Under the pieces are notes generated by a model, which was not told the DNA's origin, ran no database searches, and was given only the letters and a program-made list of their open reading frames with translations. From the NCBI GenBank assembly GCA_963837805.1, contig CAWIOU010000019.1:26610-90609 (forward strand): a DNA stretch of 64,000 bases, given 5' to 3'. Each line of letters begins with the position of its first letter. Position 1 is the first letter of the stretch. The stretch is from an uncultured Acidimicrobiaceae bacterium. Its GTDB lineage: Bacteria; Actinomycetota; Acidimicrobiia; Acidimicrobiales; RAAP-2. Below are positions 1-8,851 of this stretch, piece by piece. Position numbers and translations under genes: made by a program.

Positions 1-467
1 GGCCTTCAAGGACGTGGAACCCGAACGGAGGGACCCTAACCTATGGGGGCCGTCCTGTGCCGATGGCAACCTCGTCTAGTCCGAAAGGGCCTGGTTGCGG
101 GGCACCTCCCGCCTTACCGACATCGGGCCGCTGGCTACGGAAGTGGTTCCGAAACCGTGCGCCCCTCGGCTGGGAGCCGATGGATGAAGAACCGGAGCCT
201 GGTTCCGAATGAGTCACGACGGTGCGTCCAGCCGGATGGCGATCCCGGGCCAATCCGGCCAGTAGGCGGGATTCAGCTAGGCATGAGCGTCGGGCGATGC
301 GCGGTGATGTACAGGGCTGCTGAGCAGGGACTTCCCAAAATCGCAGACAGGTCACGCAACATGGGGTCGGAAAAGATTAGACGCAGATTAGACACGGACG
401 GCTATTTGTCACACCCGGTAAGTACCCTCCGATCACCGTCACCGTGACGGCGAAAGGAAGCTGCGCC

Positions 468-617
468 ATGACCCCCGAACTGTCCAATGATCTCACAGAC
501 ATCAGCGCCCACGTCGAGCATGTTGCCATCAATAACCCGGCTGGGTCCGATCTCAATATTCTGGCCCACGCCATTCACAATCTCTCCAAGGTCATCGAGA
601 GACTCGCAGACGGCTAG
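468..617 (+). CDS. small hypothetical protein (49 aa)
   Basis: ATG at 468 sits 7 nt after GAAAGGAAG (SD-like). The peptide looks helical (MTPELSNDLTDISAHVEHVAINNPAGSDLNILAHAIHNLSKVIERLADG). It is too short for the supplied ORF track. The stop at 615-617 lies 11 nt before repeat copy A. Confidence 0.4.
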   Translation: MTPELSNDLTDISAHVEHVAINNPAGSDLNILAHAIHNLSKVIERLADG

Positions 618-628
618 GTGTCGGAAGT

Positions 629-684
629 GCCGGCCCCGGAGCGCAGGTGGCGGAACCCCGCTCGACGGGGCCGGCCGGCGAAGG
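629..684. repeat. structured ~55-nt repeat, copy A
   Basis: gccggcccc-g-gagcg-caggtggcggaaccc-cgctc-gac-ggggccggc-cggcgaagg. It has an outer 9-bp stem and an inner 5-bp stem. It is homologous to the copies at 2532 and 3673, with compensatory changes in both stems. Confidence 0.75.
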
Positions 685-766
685 CCATAGCTGCTCGACC
701 ACGATTATGAGGGACCATGACCACTTTGCTCTACGATGAGTCAACACTCACAGAGGGGTAGAGGCG

Positions 767-1207
767 ATGCAGAAGCTGACGAGGATAGCCCTTCCGGTGG
801 TCGTTATTGCGGCCGTGGCGTTGGTCGGCTTGTCTCCCGAAGCAAGTTCAGCCGCTACTTCTCAAGCCAGGACGAGGGTCACCTGCAGTTCGATAAGCGG
901 TATCTTTCAGCCCGGTCAAAAGCTCACACTCAGTGGATGCACCGGTGCCACCGGCGGATCTGGAACAACTGCCGCCCCGTTCTTCACCCCAAGCACTATC
1001 CAATGGAAGAGCGGCGCCACGACGACGGTGACATTCAATCCGTGGGTGCAACTCCATGCGACCAGCACATGTCCTAACCAGACAGCGTTAAGGGATGGTC
1101 GTGTGAAGAGCACTACATTGAAGGGCATCACACTCCACTTCTGGGCAGACTTCTGCCTCCGTGGGAATCGCGTAAGTCTGGTGCCCGGAACGTTGATGGA
1201 CTTCTAG
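767..1207 (+). CDS. secreted hypothetical protein (signal peptide, 4 Cys)
   Basis: The ATG is preceded by a GAGGGGTAGAGG purine box. The N-terminus MQKLTRIALPVVVIAAVALVGLSPEASSA looks like a signal peptide. No family recognised. Confidence 0.6.
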   Translation: MQKLTRIALPVVVIAAVALVGLSPEASSAATSQARTRVTCSSISGIFQPGQKLTLSGCTGATGGSGTTAAPFFTPSTIQWKSGATTTVTFNPWVQLHATSTCPNQTALRDGRVKSTTLKGITLHFWADFCLRGNRVSLVPGTLMDF

Positions 1208-2206
1208 TAACCGCAAGTGGATCCGCCGACTACGACGCCCCAGCCGGGCCCGGCGATGTTCACCGACCCGAGGGGCAATGGGTGGCGCTGCTCAATCACG
1301 GGGTTCCAGGTGATAGTTGCGATCGAATCATCATCTCGAGTTAGCGTTGTTGCCGGAGTCGACTCGTCACCGAGGACTGGCACCGACCCGTTTTCAATGG
1401 CCTCAGCCACGGTCATTCTGGTCCCTTCGACGGGAATCTCGAGTTCTATAAGTCCGGCGCTCAGGGCGCAATAAGCCGTCGCAGGGATTCCATCGCTCGC
1501 TGTCATTCCTGTAGAGACAACGCCGATGACCCGGCCAGCGACACTGATGACAGGGCCACCGCTCATCCCAGGCGGGTACAGCGCACCAGTGCGGAACGAA
1601 GGGAAGGTGACCAAAGAACTGTCACGTCGGGACTCGTGCACTTCCTCGATGCGCCCTCGTGAGGTGCAGAGTGCGACGGATCCGGTTGCTTTTGTTTCGA
1701 CCGCCCTGCCGACCTCTATCTTGGGATACCCGACAGAAAGACAGTTCTCACCAAGCACGGGTGGCTCAAGGCCCAGCCGCATGATCCGAGGAGGCGCCAC
1801 GTTCTCATGTAGCTCAGCAACCATGATCGCTACGTCTGACGAGGGCACTCGACCGCCGCGAAAAGCCATGCCTACGACCCAGCAAAATGTTAGGGATAGT
1901 TCACGGCCCGGCTGTAGACGATCGGGGAAGCCAACAGCCAGTCCTCCCTCTTTCATATTCATCAACGTTGTGTCGAGCCGTTACGAGGATCGGATGCCCT
2001 CGATCGACTTGGCCCACGACGAAGGCCGTGCCGAGGCCATTGGCAACGGGCCCGTACCCCGGACGATGTACAAGCGGTACAACCCCAGGCGCCATCAGCG
2101 CCCGCGCGTCTCCCTCTAGGGCAATGAAATCGCTCTCTGTGATTGAGATCGGAATTCCGGGAAGGGTGCCCTCAGGGGTCATAGATCGAATCGTAAACCC
2201 AAACAT
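1204..2206 (-). CDS. trypsin/chymotrypsin-fold serine protease 1 (frame change within 1901-1965)
   Basis: ORFs 1901..2206 and 1204..1965 together supply His (ILVTARHNV), Asp (SDVAIMV) and Ser (PPGMSGGPV) motifs. No signal peptide. There is one frameshift in the sequence as given. Confidence 0.7.
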
Positions 2207-2254
2207 ACGTTCGACGCTGAGCTACAACACGTCCTCGGGTTCGACGGCACGTCG

Positions 2255-2482
2255 CTACAGGGCAGATTGCGCCCGACCCGGAGATTGCTCGGCGATCACG
2301 CTGCAGACACCCCACCGCACAAGAGCCCTGCAAACCTCACACTGAGCGAGGCCGGCATCTATGGGCTCAGGAATCTCGTTGCCCAACGCAACGAAGCCCC
2401 GTGGTCGGTTGGCTCGGATTGAAAGTCCGTCGGGGGCGCGGCAGACGGGGCAACCGAAGTGGTCGAATCCGTCACTGTGCAT
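2255..2482 (-). CDS. small zinc-ribbon-like protein (75 aa)
   Basis: Contains CPVC...(about 35 aa)...CEVC. Same strand as protease 1 and 49 nt upstream of it. Divergent from the Cys/His ORF at 2644. Confidence 0.5.
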   Translation of the reverse strand: MHSDGFDHFGCPVCRAPDGLSIRANRPRGFVALGNEIPEPIDAGLAQCEVCRALVRWGVCSVIAEQSPGRAQSAL

Positions 2483-2531
2483 GACAAAAGGTTATGGCGG
2501 CAATCGGTCAAACGGGTGGATTCCCGAGGTC

Positions 2532-2587
2532 GCCGGGCCCGGAACTCGGTGGCGGAACCCAGTTCGACGGGCCCCGGCCGGCGAAGG
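2532..2587. repeat. structured ~55-nt repeat, copy B
   Basis: gccgggccc-g-gaact-cggtggcggaaccc-agttc-gac-gggccccggc-cggcgaagg. It lies in the divergent intergenic region between 2482 and 2644. Confidence 0.75.
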
Positions 2588-2643
2588 TTGCGGCCAGTGG
2601 GTAGCCCTGAGCGCAGGTCACTCTCTCGCCCTACCGTGGGCCC

Positions 2644-2931
2644 GTGGAGCACTACGCCAACTGCTTCAGCCTTCGCTCGGGGCACTGTTTTCGGATGATT
2701 CAGGCCGAGAATGGCACAGGGCATGCCCAGCGTTGCCCGTACGCTACGATCTGGCGTGGTCGGTGCAAGGACAACGCTGGCAAGTGGCATACGATCGTGG
2801 CCTGCGACGGTCACCGAGCCGACCTGAGCGAGGTCCGGAGGATCAGCGTGTTCTGGGCCGCTCCGCTCAGGGCTGCCCTGGATCGACGGACCATCGTTTC
2901 TTCATCGACAGAAAGACGGCGGCGAGGATGA
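2644..2931 (+). CDS. Cys/His-rich small protein, paralog 1 (family unknown)
   Basis: GTG start. 46 of 66 aligned residues are identical to ORF 5777..6010 by hand count. Shared pattern: HYAxxFxLxSGxCFRxIQAExGTGHAQxCPYxTxWRGRxKDNAGxWHTxxACxGHRA. Confidence 0.55.
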   Translation: MEHYANCFSLRSGHCFRMIQAENGTGHAQRCPYATIWRGRCKDNAGKWHTIVACDGHRADLSEVRRISVFWAAPLRAALDRRTIVSSSTERRRRG

Positions 2932-2968
2932 TGCCGGGGAGCCAGAAGAACCAATACCCGACGATCAT
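2867..2968 (-). CDS. tiny single-TM peptide (33 aa)
   Basis: MIVGYWFFWLPGIILAAVFLSMKKRWSVDPGQP, with high third-position GC. Its ATG overlaps the TGA of the upstream ORF (ATGA). Below the ORF-track size cutoff. Confidence 0.35.
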   Translation of the reverse strand: MIVGYWFFWLPGIILAAVFLSMKKRWSVDPGQP

Positions 2969-3114
2969 GCCGAGCGATCACAACCACCTTGCACCAGTCG
3001 ACAGGCCCGGCGAACGCGTGCGACCTGCACGACCGAATAGATGACAAACGCGAGCCCGCCCGCCAGCACAACTAGGAGGATCAGCCCCTGCTCCCCGAAG
3101 ATGTCCGCTCCCAT
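2965..3114 (-). CDS. tiny single-TM peptide (49 aa), or C-terminal TM of the upstream protein
   Basis: MGADIFGEQGLILLVVLAGGLAFVIYSVVQVARV... The open frame also continues upstream to 3558, so it may be fused to the 3165..3558 protein if an indel is present. Confidence 0.3.
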   Translation of the reverse strand: MGADIFGEQGLILLVVLAGGLAFVIYSVVQVARVRRACRLVQGGCDRSA

Positions 3115-3164
3115 CGAGTCGAACAGTAGCCGGATCAGGGGCCGGTTCGCGGCTGGTAGTGCGG

Positions 3165-3558
3165 TCAGCCGTGCATCGTGTGAAGTAGCTGCGGAAAGTA
3201 GTTCGCCGCGAGACCGGTCAGAAAGCCGGCCGGGACACTCTGCAACTGATTCAGCGCCCACCCGATCACCGTCCTCGACGGTTCGGGCATCTTCGTGACG
3301 GCCCGAATCGTGTCCGACGGCGCCCCGAATCTGCGCCGCCTGGTCGCCTTCGATGCCGGGGGCACCGTCGTCGAGGAACCTGACGACGGCCGTCACGACG
3401 ACCTCGATTTGCTGCCCTTCCTCGACGGTCAGCACGTAGTCGGGAAAGACGATCATCGCCGCCTGGCCCTGCACCACCGTCGCGTCCTGCGCGCTTCCGA
3501 ACCCGATCCTGCTGCCAAAACCGCCCCTTGGACTGAATCCGTTGTCGAATCCGCTCAC
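3165..3558 (-). CDS. hypothetical protein (frame change near 3290-3300)
   Basis: GTG at 3558. The N-terminal part (SGFDNGF...VVTAVVRFLDDGAPGIEGDQAAQIRG) has high GC3 in one frame. From about 3295 the high-GC3 frame switches to ...EPSRTVIGWALNQLQSVPAGFLTGLAANYFPQLLHTMHG, with the stop at 3165. Confidence 0.35.
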
Positions 3559-3672
3559 TTACTTGCCTCTCGTCCCCTCTGGCTTGACGCCTTGGTGCGC
3601 CGGGTCCGCGCCCCTCATGGCAAACGAACCCGGCTAGACAGAGCATCGACGCAGCTAGCGACGACCTTTAGA

Positions 3673-3727
3673 GCCGGGCCCGGAACTCGGTGGCGGAACC
3701 CAGCTCGACGGGCCCGGCTCGGGAAGG
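3673..3727. repeat. structured ~55-nt repeat, copy C
   Basis: gccgggccc-g-gaact-cggtggcggaaccc-agctc-gac-gggcccggc-tcgggaagg. It lies in the divergent intergenic region between 3558 and 3875. Confidence 0.75.
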
Positions 3728-3874
3728 CTACAGCCCGTAATCTCGACGCCATGAACAAGCGCCAGCGATTCATCAACGCAGCCAGTCGAGCAGTCGCATC
3801 GGGATCGGGTCATCTCGGCGCACTAGGACACCTCGCTGAACGAGTACGGCCTCCCGTTGCCGCCGGGGCGGAAG

Positions 3875-4090
3875 ATGTCCGACGAGGAGCACGAAGCTCT
3901 GGCCGACCGAATGGAGGAGCACGTCCGACTGGTGCTGGCCGGGCAACTCCCAGCCGACTCGCCCCCCGACTTCGTTCCGCCAGCGAGCGGCGAGAACGAG
4001 AAGGGTCAGCCATGGTGGTGGGGTCCCGACTTCGACGCCGACCAGGCCAAGAAGATCATGGACGCCGACCGAGACGAGAACGCCCCTTAG
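3875..4090 (+). CDS. small acidic hypothetical protein (71 aa)
   Basis: The ATG is preceded by GGGGCGGAAG. High GC3. Peptide: MSDEEHEALADRMEEHVRLVLAG...GQPWWWGPDFDADQAKKIMDADRDENAP. Confidence 0.55.
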   Translation: MSDEEHEALADRMEEHVRLVLAGQLPADSPPDFVPPASGENEKGQPWWWGPDFDADQAKKIMDADRDENAP

Positions 4091-4185
4091 GCCGTACCGG
4101 AACCTACGTCTGTCTTTCGTCACCGGGATGCGCGTGGCGTTCGGAAGGAACCCCAAGGCAAGCGAACCGGATTGATGGCTGCGAG

Positions 4186-4974
4186 TTAGTCATACTCATT
4201 CAAGAGGCGGAGGACGTGCGTGGACGGGACGAAGTGGGAGAACTGAAGCGGCAATCCGGTACTGTCGTGGAAGTGTCCAGTGTTGATCCCGACGACTCGC
4301 ACTGGACGGTGGGGAGGACCGGACAGACCTTCTCCAAGGTAGAGGCCACGCTGAGTAGCAATGACTGGTGCTCCAGACATACCGGCTCGGCTCAGTGACT
4401 GATAGAGCAGGACTTTGCTTGTTCGTGAGTGTTTCCTGACCTCAACGGGTACCCGTGGATCGCTGGCGATGATGCCAGCCAAGAGGACTGGCCTGTCATT
4501 GATTGTGTCTGGCAAGTCTATGTACCCCGGAATAACGAGGAAATCACCGGCGGAAATGTCTGTAGTGAATCCAGCCTCGTCGCACAGTTCACCTTCGTTG
4601 ATGCCCATTCCGAGTGTGACCGGACCGACATGCCTCTTTATGCGTCGGCCGTCGAGAATGGCTAGGTCGACATCGGGATCGCTGGAAAAGACAGGTGGAT
4701 CGACGAAGGAGAAGACCTGTCGTTGCTCGGACGCTAGATCGTCGGCGTAGTGATAGCCCTCTGCGGTTACCTCGTCGAGCGTCCATCCGATCCGCGTGGA
4801 ATAGCGTGGATCAACAAGGTGACGGCATGTCACCAGCAGGTTGGCCCCGTCTGAACGTTGAACGAACGCTCCCGTACCGGAAGCCGTTCTGGTGCTGCCA
4901 TCAGGAAGCGTGTAGGAGATTCTGAGCCTGAATGAAGCGTAGAGCTGAGCCGTTCGAAAACCTAGGTCCAACAT
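4186..4974 (-). CDS. trypsin/chymotrypsin-fold serine protease 2 (intact)
   Basis: His (LLVTCRHLV), Asp (DVDLAIL) and Ser (AGMSGAPV) motifs sit in one 262-aa ORF. No signal peptide. Confidence 0.75.
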   Translation of the reverse strand: MLDLGFRTAQLYASFRLRISYTLPDGSTRTASGTGAFVQRSDGANLLVTCRHLVDPRYSTRIGWTLDEVTAEGYHYADDLASEQRQVFSFVDPPVFSSDPDVDLAILDGRRIKRHVGPVTLGMGINEGELCDEAGFTTDISAGDFLVIPGYIDLPDTINDRPVLLAGIIASDPRVPVEVRKHSRTSKVLLYQSLSRAGMSGAPVIATQRGLYLGEGLSGPPHRPVRVVGINTGHFHDSTGLPLQFSHFVPSTHVLRLLNEYD

Positions 4975-4981
4975 AGGCCAG

Positions 4982-5296
4982 TCAGTCTGCCAGGCTCAGC
5001 AGGGTCGAAGTCGGTGCTGCTGCTGAATTGACGAGCAGCGTAAACGTCTGAGTATTAGTGCCGACCGAGTTCGTCACCTTGAAGGTCAGCGTGAATGTGC
5101 CCTTGGCGCTGGCCTTGCCGGTAAGCGTGTCGGTCCCACCGCCGGATGAAGTAAAGGTCACTCCGGTGGGAAGCTTGCCCGACGGACGGCAAAGGGCCGC
5201 CCATCGGGCGGCACTGTGGGAATCGGGGGGCGGAGCCGTTAAACTTGGGACTGTCAGTCCCGATCGGGAGTCGCCGCCCTGTTTACTCCGGACTGA
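4982..5296 (-). pseudogene. 3' remnant of an Ig-like-repeat surface protein gene
   Basis: Open frame with no upstream start. The C-terminal part, ...GKLPTGVTFTSSGGGTDTLTGKASAKGTFTLTFKVTNSVGTNTQTFTLLV..., resembles bacterial Ig-like/He_PIG repeats. It is bounded upstream by an in-frame TAG at 5297-5299. Its stop lies 7 nt before the protease 2 ATG. Confidence 0.35.
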
Positions 5297-5302
5297 CTAG
5301 TA

Positions 5303-5337
5303 GCGTCGGTCCCCTTTTCCCCATCGGGGACCGACGC
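5303..5337 (-). terminator. perfect 12-bp stem hairpin (terminator-like)
   Basis: gcgtcggtcccc-ttttccccatc-ggggaccgacgc. On the minus strand it follows the small ORFs at 5378-5754 and precedes the Ig-like remnant. There is no U-tract on the minus strand. Confidence 0.45.
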
Positions 5338-5540
5338 GCCCACCTTTGGCCTTTGGTGCACAACTCCGCTACGCCACTTATCCGCAGGTGCTCGGGTCCG
5401 ACGAAGTTGCCCATGGATCAAGGTACGGCATACATGTGTCGATGGTGATGTGCACGGTTACCGGCGGTGCGCTTTCGGCGGGAACCGTGCGACTGGTGCC
5501 GTCGAGCCGAGTCGGGATGTCTTCGCTCCGGGCCTGTGCC

Positions 5541-5754
5541 CTATCTGTGCTCCGGGTGCCTGGCGTGCCCGTGGCAGTAGCCCTGGAGGCACTGCCCGCA
5601 TCTGGTCTGCGAGATCTTGATACAGGTCGGGTTGGAGCACATGCCGCCACTCGCGCTGCTCCACGTCGATGTCTTCACCCCAGCCACAGTGGTGGTCGCC
5701 GACATGGACGAAGCCTACGCCCAGGGAGTCCATTGTCAACCCGACACTGTCCAT
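5541..5754 (-). CDS. small Cys-rich (zinc-ribbon-like) protein, possible counterpart of 2255..2482
   Basis: The high-GC3 frame 5541..5705 encodes ...MCSNPTCIKISQTRCGQCLQGYCHGHARHPEHR. An N-terminal piece in another frame (MDSLGVGFVHVGDHHC) resembles MHSDGFDHFGCPVC of ORF 2255..2482. Either a frameshift or an alternative start is needed. Confidence 0.3.
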
Positions 5755-5776
5755 TCATCCGAGCGCCTGAGCGCGT

Positions 5777-6010
5777 GTGACAGGCGGCTGGAACTTTGGA
5801 GCCGTGGATCACTACGCCGAGGCGTTCTGCCTGACCTCGGGATTGTGCTTCCGACTCATCCAGGCCGAAGATGGCACAGGGCACGCCCAGCACTGCCCCT
5901 ACCTGACTGAATGGCGGGGACGCTTCAAGGACAATGCAGGCCGGTGGCACACGGTGGAGGCGTGCCAGGGCCACCGGGCGGGCCCCGACTCCGTCCAGCG
6001 GATCGGGTAG
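5777..6010 (+). CDS. Cys/His-rich small protein, paralog 2 (family unknown)
   Basis: Paralog of 2644..2931 (see that entry). The conserved block starts at VDHYAEAFC (GTG at 5804 is an alternative start). Confidence 0.55.
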   Translation: MTGGWNFGAVDHYAEAFCLTSGLCFRLIQAEDGTGHAQHCPYLTEWRGRFKDNAGRWHTVEACQGHRAGPDSVQRIG

Positions 6011-6011
6011 C

Positions 6012-6917
6012 TCACTGCGACGAGCGGGGTTGCCTTGTTACCTCGGCGTTGCACTCCCGACATCTGCTCGTCAGCCCGTCCCGCTTGCCCTTGTGCTTGC
6101 CGAACGCCTGCAGCGGGAGAACCCGAGTGCATCTGGTACATCGCTTCATGTTCGGAGGCAGCTCGACCTTCGACCGAACTCGACCGAGAGGGACGCGGAC
6201 CGCTTTGCCATCAGCGTCTACCTCACCTGGGAATGGACGGCGTGGAGGCGACAGGTCTGCCTCAGCGTCATCGGCTGGACGGTATACAAACTCGTCCTCC
6301 AGCAACTTGAAGAACTCGTCGTCAGTCAGTACGCCCTTCCGCCGATTGCAGGGCTCGCAGGAGGGAACGATGTTTGAGATGTCGTTGGTTCCTCCCCTCG
6401 CCAAGGGCACCCGGTGCTCTCTCTGGAGCCTCTTACCGCCCTTGCCGCAGTAGTAGCAACGTCCGTCGTACATCTCTCGGATGAACCGCCACACGTCATC
6501 GCTCAGACCAGGGGCGGGGACTCGGTTGACAGGTGAACGACCGCGAGGGAGCGTCGGCGGCACCACGTCGGTCAGAACGACGCTGGAGCGGCCCTTCTGG
6601 ATCGACCGAGAGAGCTGCTTGGCGTGCCGCTCGGCATCCTTACGCCGACGATGCTTCGTGGGGCACACGCGGTAGCGCCCGGCGTTGTCCCAGAGAATGT
6701 CGATGAACTCCTCGTAGGGCCTGAAGATGCGGCGACCCCGAGCTGAGAAGTAGGGGGTCCGCTTCTTCTTGCGGACCACCTTGACCTGCCATGACACCCC
6801 GCACTGGTGTCGACTCCAGTTTGGCTTCGCTCCACAGACGGCGCACGCCGCCACCTCAGCGATCCCTCGACCATCCGGGAACGGACAACTTGCCCTTGAA
6901 AGTGTGGCTACCGCCAA
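6012..6917 (-). CDS. HNH endonuclease
   Basis: CYYCGKGGKRLQREHRVPLARGGTNDISNIVPSCEPCNRRKG is an HNH core. There is a C-terminal CTRC...CREC zinc ribbon. Confidence 0.8.
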   Translation of the reverse strand: MAVATLSRASCPFPDGRGIAEVAACAVCGAKPNWSRHQCGVSWQVKVVRKKKRTPYFSARGRRIFRPYEEFIDILWDNAGRYRVCPTKHRRRKDAERHAKQLSRSIQKGRSSVVLTDVVPPTLPRGRSPVNRVPAPGLSDDVWRFIREMYDGRCYYCGKGGKRLQREHRVPLARGGTNDISNIVPSCEPCNRRKGVLTDDEFFKLLEDEFVYRPADDAEADLSPPRRPFPGEVDADGKAVRVPLGRVRSKVELPPNMKRCTRCTRVLPLQAFGKHKGKRDGLTSRCRECNAEVTRQPRSSQ

Positions 6918-6971
6918 AGATCACGTCGCAAGGATACGGCCGCGTGTCGGGACCCGGTGGCCTCCGAGGGG

Positions 6972-7520
6972 TCAGGCCGTGAGGATCTGCGCCTGAGAAG
7001 CCGTCACATCCACGACCGGCCTCACCTTGTGGCGGTAGGCGGTTGCCAGCATCCGCACATCGTTATGACCGGCGAAGTCGGCCACTTCCCTGAAGGTGGG
7101 TCCCGGCATCAACCAGGAGTGAGATAGCCGTGTGGCGTAACTCGTTCGGGCTGAGGCCCACGATGCCGATCTGGACGCCGAGTTCGTCCACCGACCGTCG
7201 CAGGTTGGAGGGGTCGATGGGGGTGCCGATGTCCGTGGTGAACACCAGTCCGTGTTCTTCCCACGCAGGTGATGCCAGGCGCACCCGCTTCTGCTGTGCC
7301 TTGTAAGCCTTCAGCAGCGCGGTCAGCCCGTCCGGCATCTTCAAGGTGCGGTCGCCTCCTGCCTTGGGGTGTTCGATGGCAAAGGTGCCGTCAGGCAACC
7401 TCACTTGCGCCTGCTTCACGGTGAGCGTGCCAGCCTTCAGATCAACGGCAGACCACGGAAGGCCCAGCACTTCCCCAGGGCGAAGCCCCATCCAAACAGC
7501 GGTCAAGCCGCACCCTGGCG
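6972..7520 (-). pseudogene. tyrosine recombinase (phage integrase) catalytic domain lacking its N-terminal domain
   Basis: GLRPGEVLGLPWSAVDL...ELRHTAISLLVDAG, then one frame change, then ...FREVADFAGHNDVRMLATAYRHK. This gives the R, HxxR, H and Y motifs. The N-terminal core-binding domain is absent. The reading frame is fused to the upstream DLH domain. Confidence 0.7.
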
Positions 7521-7524
7521 CGCT

Positions 7525-8851
7525 CGTTGCCCGCAGGTACTTCTCGAACCATGCGCCGGACAACTGGGCCACTTCCTCGAGCGACCCGGGCTCTTCGAAC
7601 AGGTGGGTTGCGCCGGGCACGACGGCGAGCCGGCACGGGCAACAGAGATGGGTGGCCGCCACCCGATTGAGCTCGAGAACGTCGCGATCCGCCCCGCCCA
7701 CGATCAGCAGGGTGGGGCAGCGTACGAGAGGAAGCCGAGCGTCAGCGAGGTCGGGGCAACCCCCGCGCGACACTACGGCTCGGACGGTGTTGCCCGGCGA
7801 CCCGGCCGCCCACAACGCTGCGGCCGCGCCCGTGCTGGCGCCGAAGTAGCCCCGGGGCAGCCAGCCGAGCTGTCCCTGCCTGCGGATCCAATCGCTCGCG
7901 GCCAGCAGTCGACTAGCCAGAAGCTCGACATCAAAGACCTTTCGTCGGTCCGAAGCTTCGGCGGAGGTGAGGAGATCGAACAACAGCGTCCCGAGGCCCC
8001 GCGCGTGAAAGGTTCCGCGCCACCGCCAGGTTCCGAGGGCTGAGACGGCTGCTCCCACTTCCGTGGGCGAAGAGCACGAGACCCCGGGCGCCGGTCGGCA
8101 CCTGCAGGAGTCCCTCCAACTCGCTACCGTCGATGGGGACCGTTACCGCTCGATCGAGGTCAAGTCCGAGAGCCGGATCGGCGGCTCCGCTTGCGTTCTG
8201 GCGAAGCAGTGCGGCGACCTCCTCGTCCGACGTCTGCCCGAAATCGCGGTACCAGAGCCCGACGGCCACGAAGTGAGGGGGGGTCACCAAACTCACGACC
8301 TGGTCGACCTCAGCCTGGAGTTCCTTGACCGTCTCCGAGGGGGCCACGGGCACCGCCAGGACGATGTGACGGGCTCCCCGGGCCCGGGCGATGCGCACGG
8401 CCGTGCGCGCTGTTGCCCCGGTAGCCAGCCCGTCGTCGACGATGACCACCGTGCGTCCCTCGATGGCGATGGGCGCCCGTCCGTCCCGATACCGTCTGAC
8501 CCGGCGGGTCAGCTCTCGACGTTCGAGCGCTTCCACCTGGGTGATGTCCCGTTCTGTCAAACCCACCCGACGGACCAGGTCGGAGTCGAGCAGGCGAACG
8601 CCACCCTCTCCAATGGCCCCGAATCCGAGCTCGGCCTGGAACGGAAGGCCAAGTTTGCGGACCACGATGACGTCGAGCGGCGCCCGTAGGGCGCGGGCCA
8701 CCTCGGCGGCCACCGGCACGCCTCCCCGGGGCAAGGCCAGCACGACCGGCTGTTCGTCCCGGAGGGGGGCTAGCAGTGCGGCTAGGCGCCGACCAGCGTC
8801 TTTCCGGTCGGCGAAGACCTTCTGCCTCTCGTTCGGCCCGACGACGGTCAT
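7525..8851 (-). CDS. phosphoribosyltransferase - dienelactone hydrolase two-domain protein (frame change near 7990-8040)
   Basis: PRTase motif VVIVDDGLATGAT. DLH part: VLFAHGSGSSRLSPRN / GASTGAAAALWAA / VPGATHLFEE. Its ATG at 8851 is 1 nt from the stop of the upstream esterase-like gene. No stop precedes the integrase remnant. Confidence 0.75.

Follow-up and report, generated by a model that had tools for sequence, protein, structure and literature searches.

Small proteins with a candidate Cys3His metal site in the flexible genome of Acidimicrobiia

Genome annotation has a large blind spot for small proteins that belong to no database family, and a 64,000-nucleotide (nt) stretch of DNA from an uncultured Acidimicrobiaceae bacterium (GCA_963837805.1, contig CAWIOU010000019.1, positions 26,610–90,609; hereafter the window) confronts us with two of them: what are the related Cys- and His-containing proteins encoded near its left end, and what might they do? 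A preliminary description had presented them as paralogues of a family that could not be placed, kept under purifying selection, with three Cys and four His that suggested metal binding. Our analyses support both the observation and this reading, except that the metal site is smaller than proposed, a single candidate set of three Cys and one His (Cys3His). With moderate confidence, we propose that these are small metal-binding, partner-binding proteins of the flexible genome, and that the metal is probably zinc. Throughout, C numbers denote contigs of the source genome (G000, 5 Mb, 91% complete), of which the window is part of C19, and L numbers denote loci fetched from public genomes (L093 being the IMG/VR uncultivated viral genome 3300025862_000239).

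Both open reading frames (ORFs) were found on the plus strand, at 2644–2931 (copy 1, 95 amino acids (aa)) and 5777–6010 (copy 2, 77 aa). BLASTP aligned their products without gaps over 45/68 identities and 52/68 positives (E 3e-34), compared with 46/66 identities in the earlier hand count, and the residue pattern that had been drawn up for the pair is accurate for both. Copy 2 most likely begins at GTG 5804, not GTG 5777, because its relatives mostly begin M-(D/E)-H-Y-A or M-A-Q-L-A-H-Y-A; residues are numbered here in this 68-aa form, from the Met of GTG 5804. The tail of copy 1 is 1 nt out of the family frame, in which members usually end ...PLRSGLPW, hence its 95 aa and Arg-rich end, and the usual tail is present in another frame (C19:29440–29490). 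Copy 1 further carries F41C and H30R at well-conserved positions, and in the tree its terminal branch is long. Copy 2, with a GC content at third codon positions (GC3) of 0.84, carries L61P where 85% of members have Leu, and is 89–90% identical to the copy on C31 and to the metagenome proteins P0001 and P0002.

Selection was analyzed on the 64-codon core of 32 distinct gapless copies (GC3 0.82) from the source genome and 45 public-genome loci. The ratio of nonsynonymous to synonymous substitution rates (dN/dS; Nei–Gojobori, 477 pairs) was 0.16 in the coding frame, and pairwise diversity at codon positions 1, 2 and 3 was 0.19, 0.15 and 0.43. For the window pair, whose differences fall mostly at third codon positions, dN was 0.26 and dS 1.35, a ratio of 0.19; comparisons with the nearest paralogues gave 0.11–0.14 for copy 1 (C30, C33) and 0.07 for copy 2 (C31), and pairs within the source genome gave 0.06–0.20, with dS in the paralogue comparisons at 0.4–2.6. 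Neither copy thus approaches the value near 1 that would betray decay, and the earlier suggestion of purifying selection with no recent duplication is borne out by the window pair and by the nearest-paralogue ratios of 0.07–0.14. Because dN/dS is low and dS high in these comparisons, the two copies either stem from an old duplication or were acquired independently.

How far does the family extend? A word-indexed search returned 74 proteins of 56–90% identity, every one annotated as 'hypothetical protein' and none with a Pfam domain, and an exhaustive profile search retrieved 349 representatives of 50%-identity clusters at E≤0.001 (85 of them at E≤1e-10), nearly all of 55–130 aa. Where names are given, they are those of Acidimicrobiales or other Actinomycetota metagenome-assembled genomes (MAGs). 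The 45 public loci lie in Acidimicrobiales/Acidimicrobiaceae genomes, several per genome, and carriers are multi-copy, with 5–26 matches in each of five genomes. The distribution is patchy: of 401 genomes drawn from across the phylum, 9 had a match, with 7 of these among the 21 genomes of one family, and there was no match in the 20 genomes of the source's own family or order listed in that sample. The source genome itself holds about ten copies or remnants (Table 1), and homology between paralogues spans only the gene, from ~20–40 nt before the start to just past the end.

In place of the three Cys and four His first suggested as a metal site, conservation among 221 domain-covering members aligned to the profile singles out four residues. 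C15 (97%), C31 (96%), C54 (98%) and H57 (97%) are close to invariant, together with R17 (97%), G39 (98%) and V51 (92%), whereas the remaining His vary (H3 67%, H27 58%, H30 73%, H49 52%). The proteins would therefore bind metal, if they do, through one Cys3His site, C15, C31, C54 and H57, with the spacing C-x13-17-C-x22-C-x2-H across the family. AlphaFold2, run on 55 diverse sequences, gave an all-beta model (predicted local distance difference test (pLDDT) 75, predicted template-modelling score (pTM) 0.56) with strands at 7–9, 14–20, 26–30, 35–42, 48–54 and 63–66. Here C15 stands at the beginning of strand 2, C31 and C54 at the ends of strands 3 and 5, and H57 in the turn after strand 5; judging by strand order, the four candidate ligands may share one edge of an up-and-down sheet. 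Disulfides are unlikely, since family proteins have neither a signal peptide nor a hydrophobic segment.

That the family could not be placed holds after wider searching. Neither window protein matched Pfam-A at E≤1, nor was there a family-wide match among 55 diverse members at that threshold; the Pfam search thus offers no characterised domain. NCBIfam, PHROGs and PADLOC had no match for the family, a profile search of all PDB sequences returned chance matches only (E about 1), and a full-text literature search returned nothing relevant. Foldseek found no match for the all-beta model among 350,542 PDB chains and BFVD at E≤0.001, the best query-normalised TM-scores being <0.5, and the best zinc-ribbon matches had E 0.3–0.6 and TM 0.35–0.40.

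Of the known patterns that had been set aside by eye, we examined WhiB, ZAS and Rieske, and we agree on each. With three conserved Cys, spacings of x13-17 and x22 and no C-x2-C, the family does not fit WhiB, and no member of the 55 matched Whib at E≤1; neither window protein has the H-x3-C-x2-C of ZAS, nor does the family consensus, again with no zf-HC2 match; and with a single conserved His, the C-x-H...C-x2-H boxes of Rieske proteins are absent from the alignment, with no Pfam match. WhiB-like (Wbl) proteins nevertheless offer a parallel. They are proteins of 80–120 aa restricted to Actinobacteria, with several diverged paralogues per genome and others on actinobacterial plasmids and phages, and their Cys-ligated metal centre serves partner binding, not catalysis. 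The present family resembles them (PF02467) in its small size, actinobacterial hosts, multiple paralogues and Cys-centred candidate metal site, but Wbl proteins are helical and hold a [4Fe-4S] cluster by four Cys (C-x14-22-C-x2-C-x5-C), whereas here three Cys and a His occur in a predicted all-beta protein.

The RbpA core domain of Streptomyces, a small beta-sheet that binds zinc through three Cys and one His and contacts RNA polymerase, is likewise an actinobacterial small beta-sheet domain with that ligand count. Its ligands are arranged C-x3-H...C-x2-C, however, and it is encoded by a single-copy core gene and followed by a basic linker and a helix that binds sigma, whereas the present proteins end ~10–25 residues past the last ligand and have no helical C-terminal domain; PF13397 (RbpA) had no match in the 55 members, and no RbpA structure was among the 50 Foldseek matches listed. 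As a separate observation, a six-frame search did not find PF13397, usual in Actinobacteria, in the 91%-complete source genome. Ogr/Delta of P2/P4 and Com of Mu are metal-binding proteins of 60–80 aa from mobile elements, regulators that act via the host machinery or RNA contacts, but they come from proteobacterial phages and are Cys4 fingers built on C-x2-C knuckles, and no sequence or fold similarity to them was found. Zinc ribbons and fingers of the Ogr/Delta kind have two knuckles, C-x2-C or C-x2-H, on beta hairpins, whereas here there is one C-x2-H and the other two Cys stand isolated on separate strands. That the present family might act in regulation is no more than a guess.

We also analyzed the sequence upstream of the genes. 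Copy 1 is one of 26 copies, out of 49 and spread over many genomes, in which the start codon is preceded by gtcaCTCCCCCGCCC-TAnnnT-gg, with 6–8 nt from the final T to ATG/GTG; the same motif can be written gtcaCTCCCCCGCCCTAnnnTgg, again followed by 6–8 nt and ATG/GTG. TAnnnT is the actinobacterial -10 consensus, and transcription starts 6–8 nt downstream of it are usual. Because the box lies at this distance from the start codon, the mRNAs of the motif-bearing copies, copy 1 included, are probably leaderless, and the invariant C-rich stretch upstream could be an operator common to all copies. Copy 2, the copy on C31 and those of L020, L025, L037 and L055 form a second class, whose different upstream region shows partial conservation that could reflect an N-terminal extension, L-I-H-P-D-G-S-L. 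A generic sigma-70 scan yielded nothing relevant.

Both window copies lie inside a low-GC, foreign-looking island (GC 0.57–0.64 versus 0.70–0.72 in flanking core genes), at whose right edge GC steps up from about 0.62 to 0.69. There the C-terminal half of a tyrosine integrase is joined in frame to a hydrolase-like N-terminal part (minus-strand ORF 7063–8058), and this half is homologous to the integrases that adjoin other copies. A homologue of the same tyrosine integrase lies within 5 kb at 16/55 loci, an IS110 transposase within 5 kb at 9/55 and small serine recombinases near the gene at 5/55, while 5/9 annotated loci have a transposase, resolvase or integrase within 6 kb. Two of the five integrase loci of the source genome lie within 2.5 kb of a copy (~0.1 expected, by a rough estimate). 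In L093, a 16-kb contig, a large serine recombinase (6016–7482) is followed by the family gene (7961–8164) and then by phage-like genes in convergent orientation, one of which encodes a large terminase. Across loci, no neighbour gene is found repeatedly, and a conserved operon partner was rejected on finding unrelated upstream and downstream genes in nine annotated loci; a 147-aa gene with no Pfam match is coupled to the small gene in L039 and L042, limited to one subclade.

Two of these loci deserve a separate remark. Within 6016–14039 of L093 only four convergent genes follow the small gene, among them the terminase and a 639-aa PHROG 13692 protein, and the unit could be a satellite or a decayed prophage. 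In L039 (2583–5210) the integrase and a 238-aa gene, which has no Pfam match but an N-terminus that looks like a ribbon-helix-helix by eye, run leftward, while the 147-aa gene and the small gene run rightward with stop and start 3 nt apart (TAAGCGATG); this layout resembles the divergent control region of an integrative element.

We therefore favour the following explanation. The two ORFs are real genes of an undescribed family of small (about 68–84 aa), cytoplasmic, predicted all-beta proteins in which Cys15, Cys31, Cys54 and His57 most likely hold one metal ion, probably a structural Zn2+, at the edge of a five- to six-strand sheet. Many of the genes, copy 1 among them, would be self-contained units with a C-rich box and a TAnnnT -10 element, and would belong to the flexible genome, as their association with low-GC islands, tyrosine integrases, serine recombinases, IS110 and, once, a phage-like contig suggests. 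Several diverged copies per genome and many decayed remnants point to birth-and-death turnover. Since such small size and uniform conservation do not suit an enzyme, and no neighbour gene is constant, we propose as most likely a compact module, stabilised by metal, that would bind a conserved partner, whether protein or nucleic acid, to the benefit of the element or the host. In all this, the data show directly that the genes are coding and under purifying selection, how far the family reaches, which residues are invariant, that the libraries lack it and where the genes lie, and metal binding, leaderless expression and partner binding are deduced from them.

Several observations weigh against this explanation. 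The family had no match in 50,697 phage records and chance matches only in 72,556 plasmid records, collections that hold few Acidimicrobiia; weak tblastn matches on haloarchaeal plasmids, antisense to a transposase gene and lacking the invariant Cys and His, were dismissed as chance. Part of the family is stably chromosomal, and not every copy sits on an active mobile element, because some copies are syntenic orthologues in related genomes (L023, L028, L030 and L034). Many of the 'frameshifted' copies, which come from MAGs that we take to be long-read assemblies, may be assembly errors. The pLDDT of 75 warrants moderate confidence only, and a shallower alignment gave a poor model (pLDDT 49); the near-neutral isoelectric point (pI) of the core domain (median 6.95) lends nothing to nucleic-acid binding; copy 2 lacks the leaderless promoter motif; and the Cys3His set could equally hold an iron–sulphur (Fe–S) cluster.

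This last point leads to the alternative that survives best, although we still regard it as unlikely: that the site binds, for example, a [2Fe-2S] cluster as in mitoNEET/CDGSH proteins, making the protein an electron carrier or a small sensor of redox state or iron. The 3Cys-1His set itself, conserved in 96–98% of members of a small beta-rich domain, accords with this, as do the last ligands of a close subfamily, A-C-D-G-H, which recall C-D-G-(S/A/T)-H; small multi-copy metal-cluster regulators of the WhiB-like kind are, moreover, typical of Actinobacteria. The CDGSH (PF09360) signature C-x-C-x2-(S/T)-x3-P-x-C-D-G-(S/A/T)-H is nevertheless absent: there is no C-x-C pair 8–10 residues upstream, the last two ligands are spaced C54-x2-H57 instead of C-x3-H, and G56 reaches only 62% in the wider family. 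Neither the Pfam model (55 members, E≤1) nor Foldseek produced a CDGSH match, and Fe–S assembly or redox genes are not found as regular neighbours.

Could the gene, more than its product, explain why the family multiplies? It might serve as an attachment site, or carry one, integrative elements recombining in the 3' part of the gene at about codon 50 and bringing a replacement end or copy, with the protein's own function secondary; compare phage 21/e14 in icd and islands in tRNA genes. We judge this improbable. Three kinds of recombinase adjoin copies, orphan 3' fragments outnumber 5' ones by about 18 to 7 (our own count in five genomes), several fragments appear to begin at codons 49–53, and the chimeric proteins P0212 and P0087 break at codons 50–51. 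One fragment (C33:414426) has a true junction, abutting the end of a 320-nt sequence that is repeated three times in the genome. Against these stand the fragments of L032/L052 and C3 that seemed to share a start and in fact continue upstream in decayed form, and an nhmmer analysis of 24 fragments in which starts range from codon 6 to codon 53. Because of this spread and these decayed continuations we downgraded a common breakpoint at codon 51, and the cluster of starts largely reflects the strongly conserved block of codons 51–61. We found no element that carries an integrase between a full copy at one end and a matching fragment at the other, the L024 genome has no partner near its integrase-linked copy, and integrases lie on either side at variable distance and orientation. 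The conserved 5' motif was also rejected as an attachment site: this 23-nt motif had no instance without the gene in the source genome or the fetched loci.

The bolder form of the same idea, a new metal-binding fold whose gene doubles as a portable landing site for integrative elements, has an equally slim chance of being right. If true, elements with tyrosine or serine recombinases would recombine inside the 3' part and carry a copy of their own, so that each integration would add a paralogue and leave a displaced 3' remnant. The gene would be a protein-coding counterpart of the tRNA-gene sites and of icd/e14, and the idea would account for the number of copies as well as for the surplus of 3' fragments. 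As to the repeat at the C33 junction, its three copies (at least 320 nt, 84–88% identity; C33:414100–414425, C33:429412–429731 and C35:475120–475435) have a common end point; the repeat seems to contain the beginning of a gene on the minus strand (MDPVREWWQ...) and is probably the end of an insertion sequence.

We give little credence to the protein being an accessory factor of site-specific recombination, that is, a directionality factor or architectural protein acting beside an integrase. The gene does directly follow an integrase in L024 (8 nt past the stop), L046 and L057, in L093 it lies downstream of the large serine recombinase, and the recombination directionality factors of serine integrases are too diverse for exclusion by sequence. 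Yet the same protein occurs beside tyrosine and serine recombinases alike and beside neither in about 70% of loci, and most genomes have more copies than integrases. Its pI is near neutral, and a winged-helix excisionase (Xis) is contradicted by the all-beta prediction, by an integrase near only 16/55 loci and by the lack of Pfam or PHROG matches. Much the same low standing goes to the proposal that the protein is half of a toxin–antitoxin or defence/counter-defence pair of mobile islands. What speaks for it are its neighbours: a candidate defence protease (PDC-S45, 2.8e-9) and an HNH nuclease in the window's island, a 493-aa gene that is SIR2-like by reading of its sequence alone, a gasdermin-protease gene, and the 147-aa gene that stops 3–4 nt before the small gene in L039 and L042. 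None of these recurs, the 147-aa partner being confined to its subclade, PADLOC gave no match for the family, and many copies stand alone with their own putative leaderless promoter.

Finally, it is scarcely credible that the conserved item is a DNA or RNA element or an antisense ORF, although minus-strand frames (2359–2814 and 5675–5974) are also open in the window and paralogue homology is limited to ~250 nt: codon-position analysis rules it out, as substitutions pile up at third positions of the plus frame, and dN/dS is 0.16 there versus 0.32 and 1.5–2.2 in the five other frames, which have stops in 11–32 of the 32 copies (the lowest alternative, 0.32, is an antisense frame with a stop in 32/32, the other four having stops in 11–28), while RNAalifold gave no consensus pairs for the conserved tail, which was accordingly rejected as a hairpin, terminator or IS110 target.

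For now this is a solid, not startling, orphan family. It is a well-defined case, with hundreds of clusters, strong purifying selection, one clear candidate metal site of four residues, a predicted fold for which neither solved nor viral structures gave a match and a consistent tie to the mobile part of genomes of Acidimicrobiia, a lineage of soil and peat in which hardly any genetics has been done. The family would be a compact target for a new Pfam entry. Should it prove to be a regulator on integrative elements, it would be a second case, unrelated to WhiB-like proteins, of metal-centred regulators spread by actinobacterial mobile DNA.

Table 1. Features of the window and family copies of the source genome. 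Positions are those of the window unless a contig is given.
Feature	Position	Strand	Basis or remark
Copy 1, small Cys3His protein	2644..2931	+	95 aa as read, core = residues 1–68; ORF list, BLASTP to copy 2
Copy 1, candidate ligand codons	C15 2686–2688, C31 2734–2736, C54 2803–2805, H57 2812–2814	+	
Promoter-like motif of copy 1	2617..2643	+	GTCACTCTCTCGCCC, then TACCGT (2632–2637, -10-like TAnnnT), 6 nt, GTG 2644
Copy 2	5804..6010	+	68 aa from GTG 5804 (MDHYAE...), the most likely start; listed ORF begins GTG 5777; stop TAG 6008–6010
Copy 2, candidate ligand codons	C15 5846–5848, C31 5894–5896, C54 5963–5965, H57 5972–5974	+	
HNH endonuclease	6012..6917	-	Pfam HNH_5 2.3e-12, PHROG endonuclease VII 5e-25
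Tyrosine integrase, C-terminal catalytic half	7063..7494	-	Phage_integrase 1.1e-10, residues 189–321 of ORF 7063–8058
Low-GC island, window part	1..7500	.	~20 kb in total, C19 about 14,000–34,100
Integrase N-terminal fragment, left end of island, outside window	C19:15366–15743		
Intact copies, source genome	C19 (both window copies), C30, C31		
Frameshifted copies, source genome	C24, C33, C14:3879		
Divergent copies, source genome	C14:233742, C18:102285		
Orphan fragments, source genome	C3, C33, C35		

Among the neighbouring genes, the HNH endonuclease is convergent with copy 2 and ends 1 nt past its stop, and has a Cys-rich C-terminal region (Lar-like, 2e-8). The order small gene, HNH and integrase recurs in one other assembly (L019), and in L020 an HNH fragment directly follows the gene. 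The island also encodes two trypsin-fold proteases, both cytoplasmic and on the minus strand: the product of 4186–4974 is the one that matches PDC-S45, a PADLOC candidate defence protein, and that of 1204–1965 has weak matches to retron reverse transcriptase-protease and LmuA models (about 2e-5). The N-terminal part of the latter seems to lie in a separate ORF (1901–2206), perhaps via a frameshift. A duplicated module of protease and small protein was considered and rejected, as the proteases are not detectably paralogous (E 0.03) and neither recurs beside other copies. The same fate met a zinc-ribbon ORF facing the gene: ORFs 2255–2482 and 5541–5705 have no similarity, and C-x2-C...C-x2-C ORFs were not found upstream in other loci.

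Two minor observations concern the rest of the island. A 50-nt GC-rich hairpin (-30 kcal/mol) occurs at 2532–2581 and 3673–3722, with a weaker copy at 630–679; the two good copies, the only ones in the genome, are in direct orientation and bracket copy 1 together with a 197-aa minus-strand ORF (2965–3558). To the left of the window, C19:20779–21840 encodes a 353-aa protein with two Clp_N repeats and a ClpX-type C4 zinc finger but no ATPase domain.

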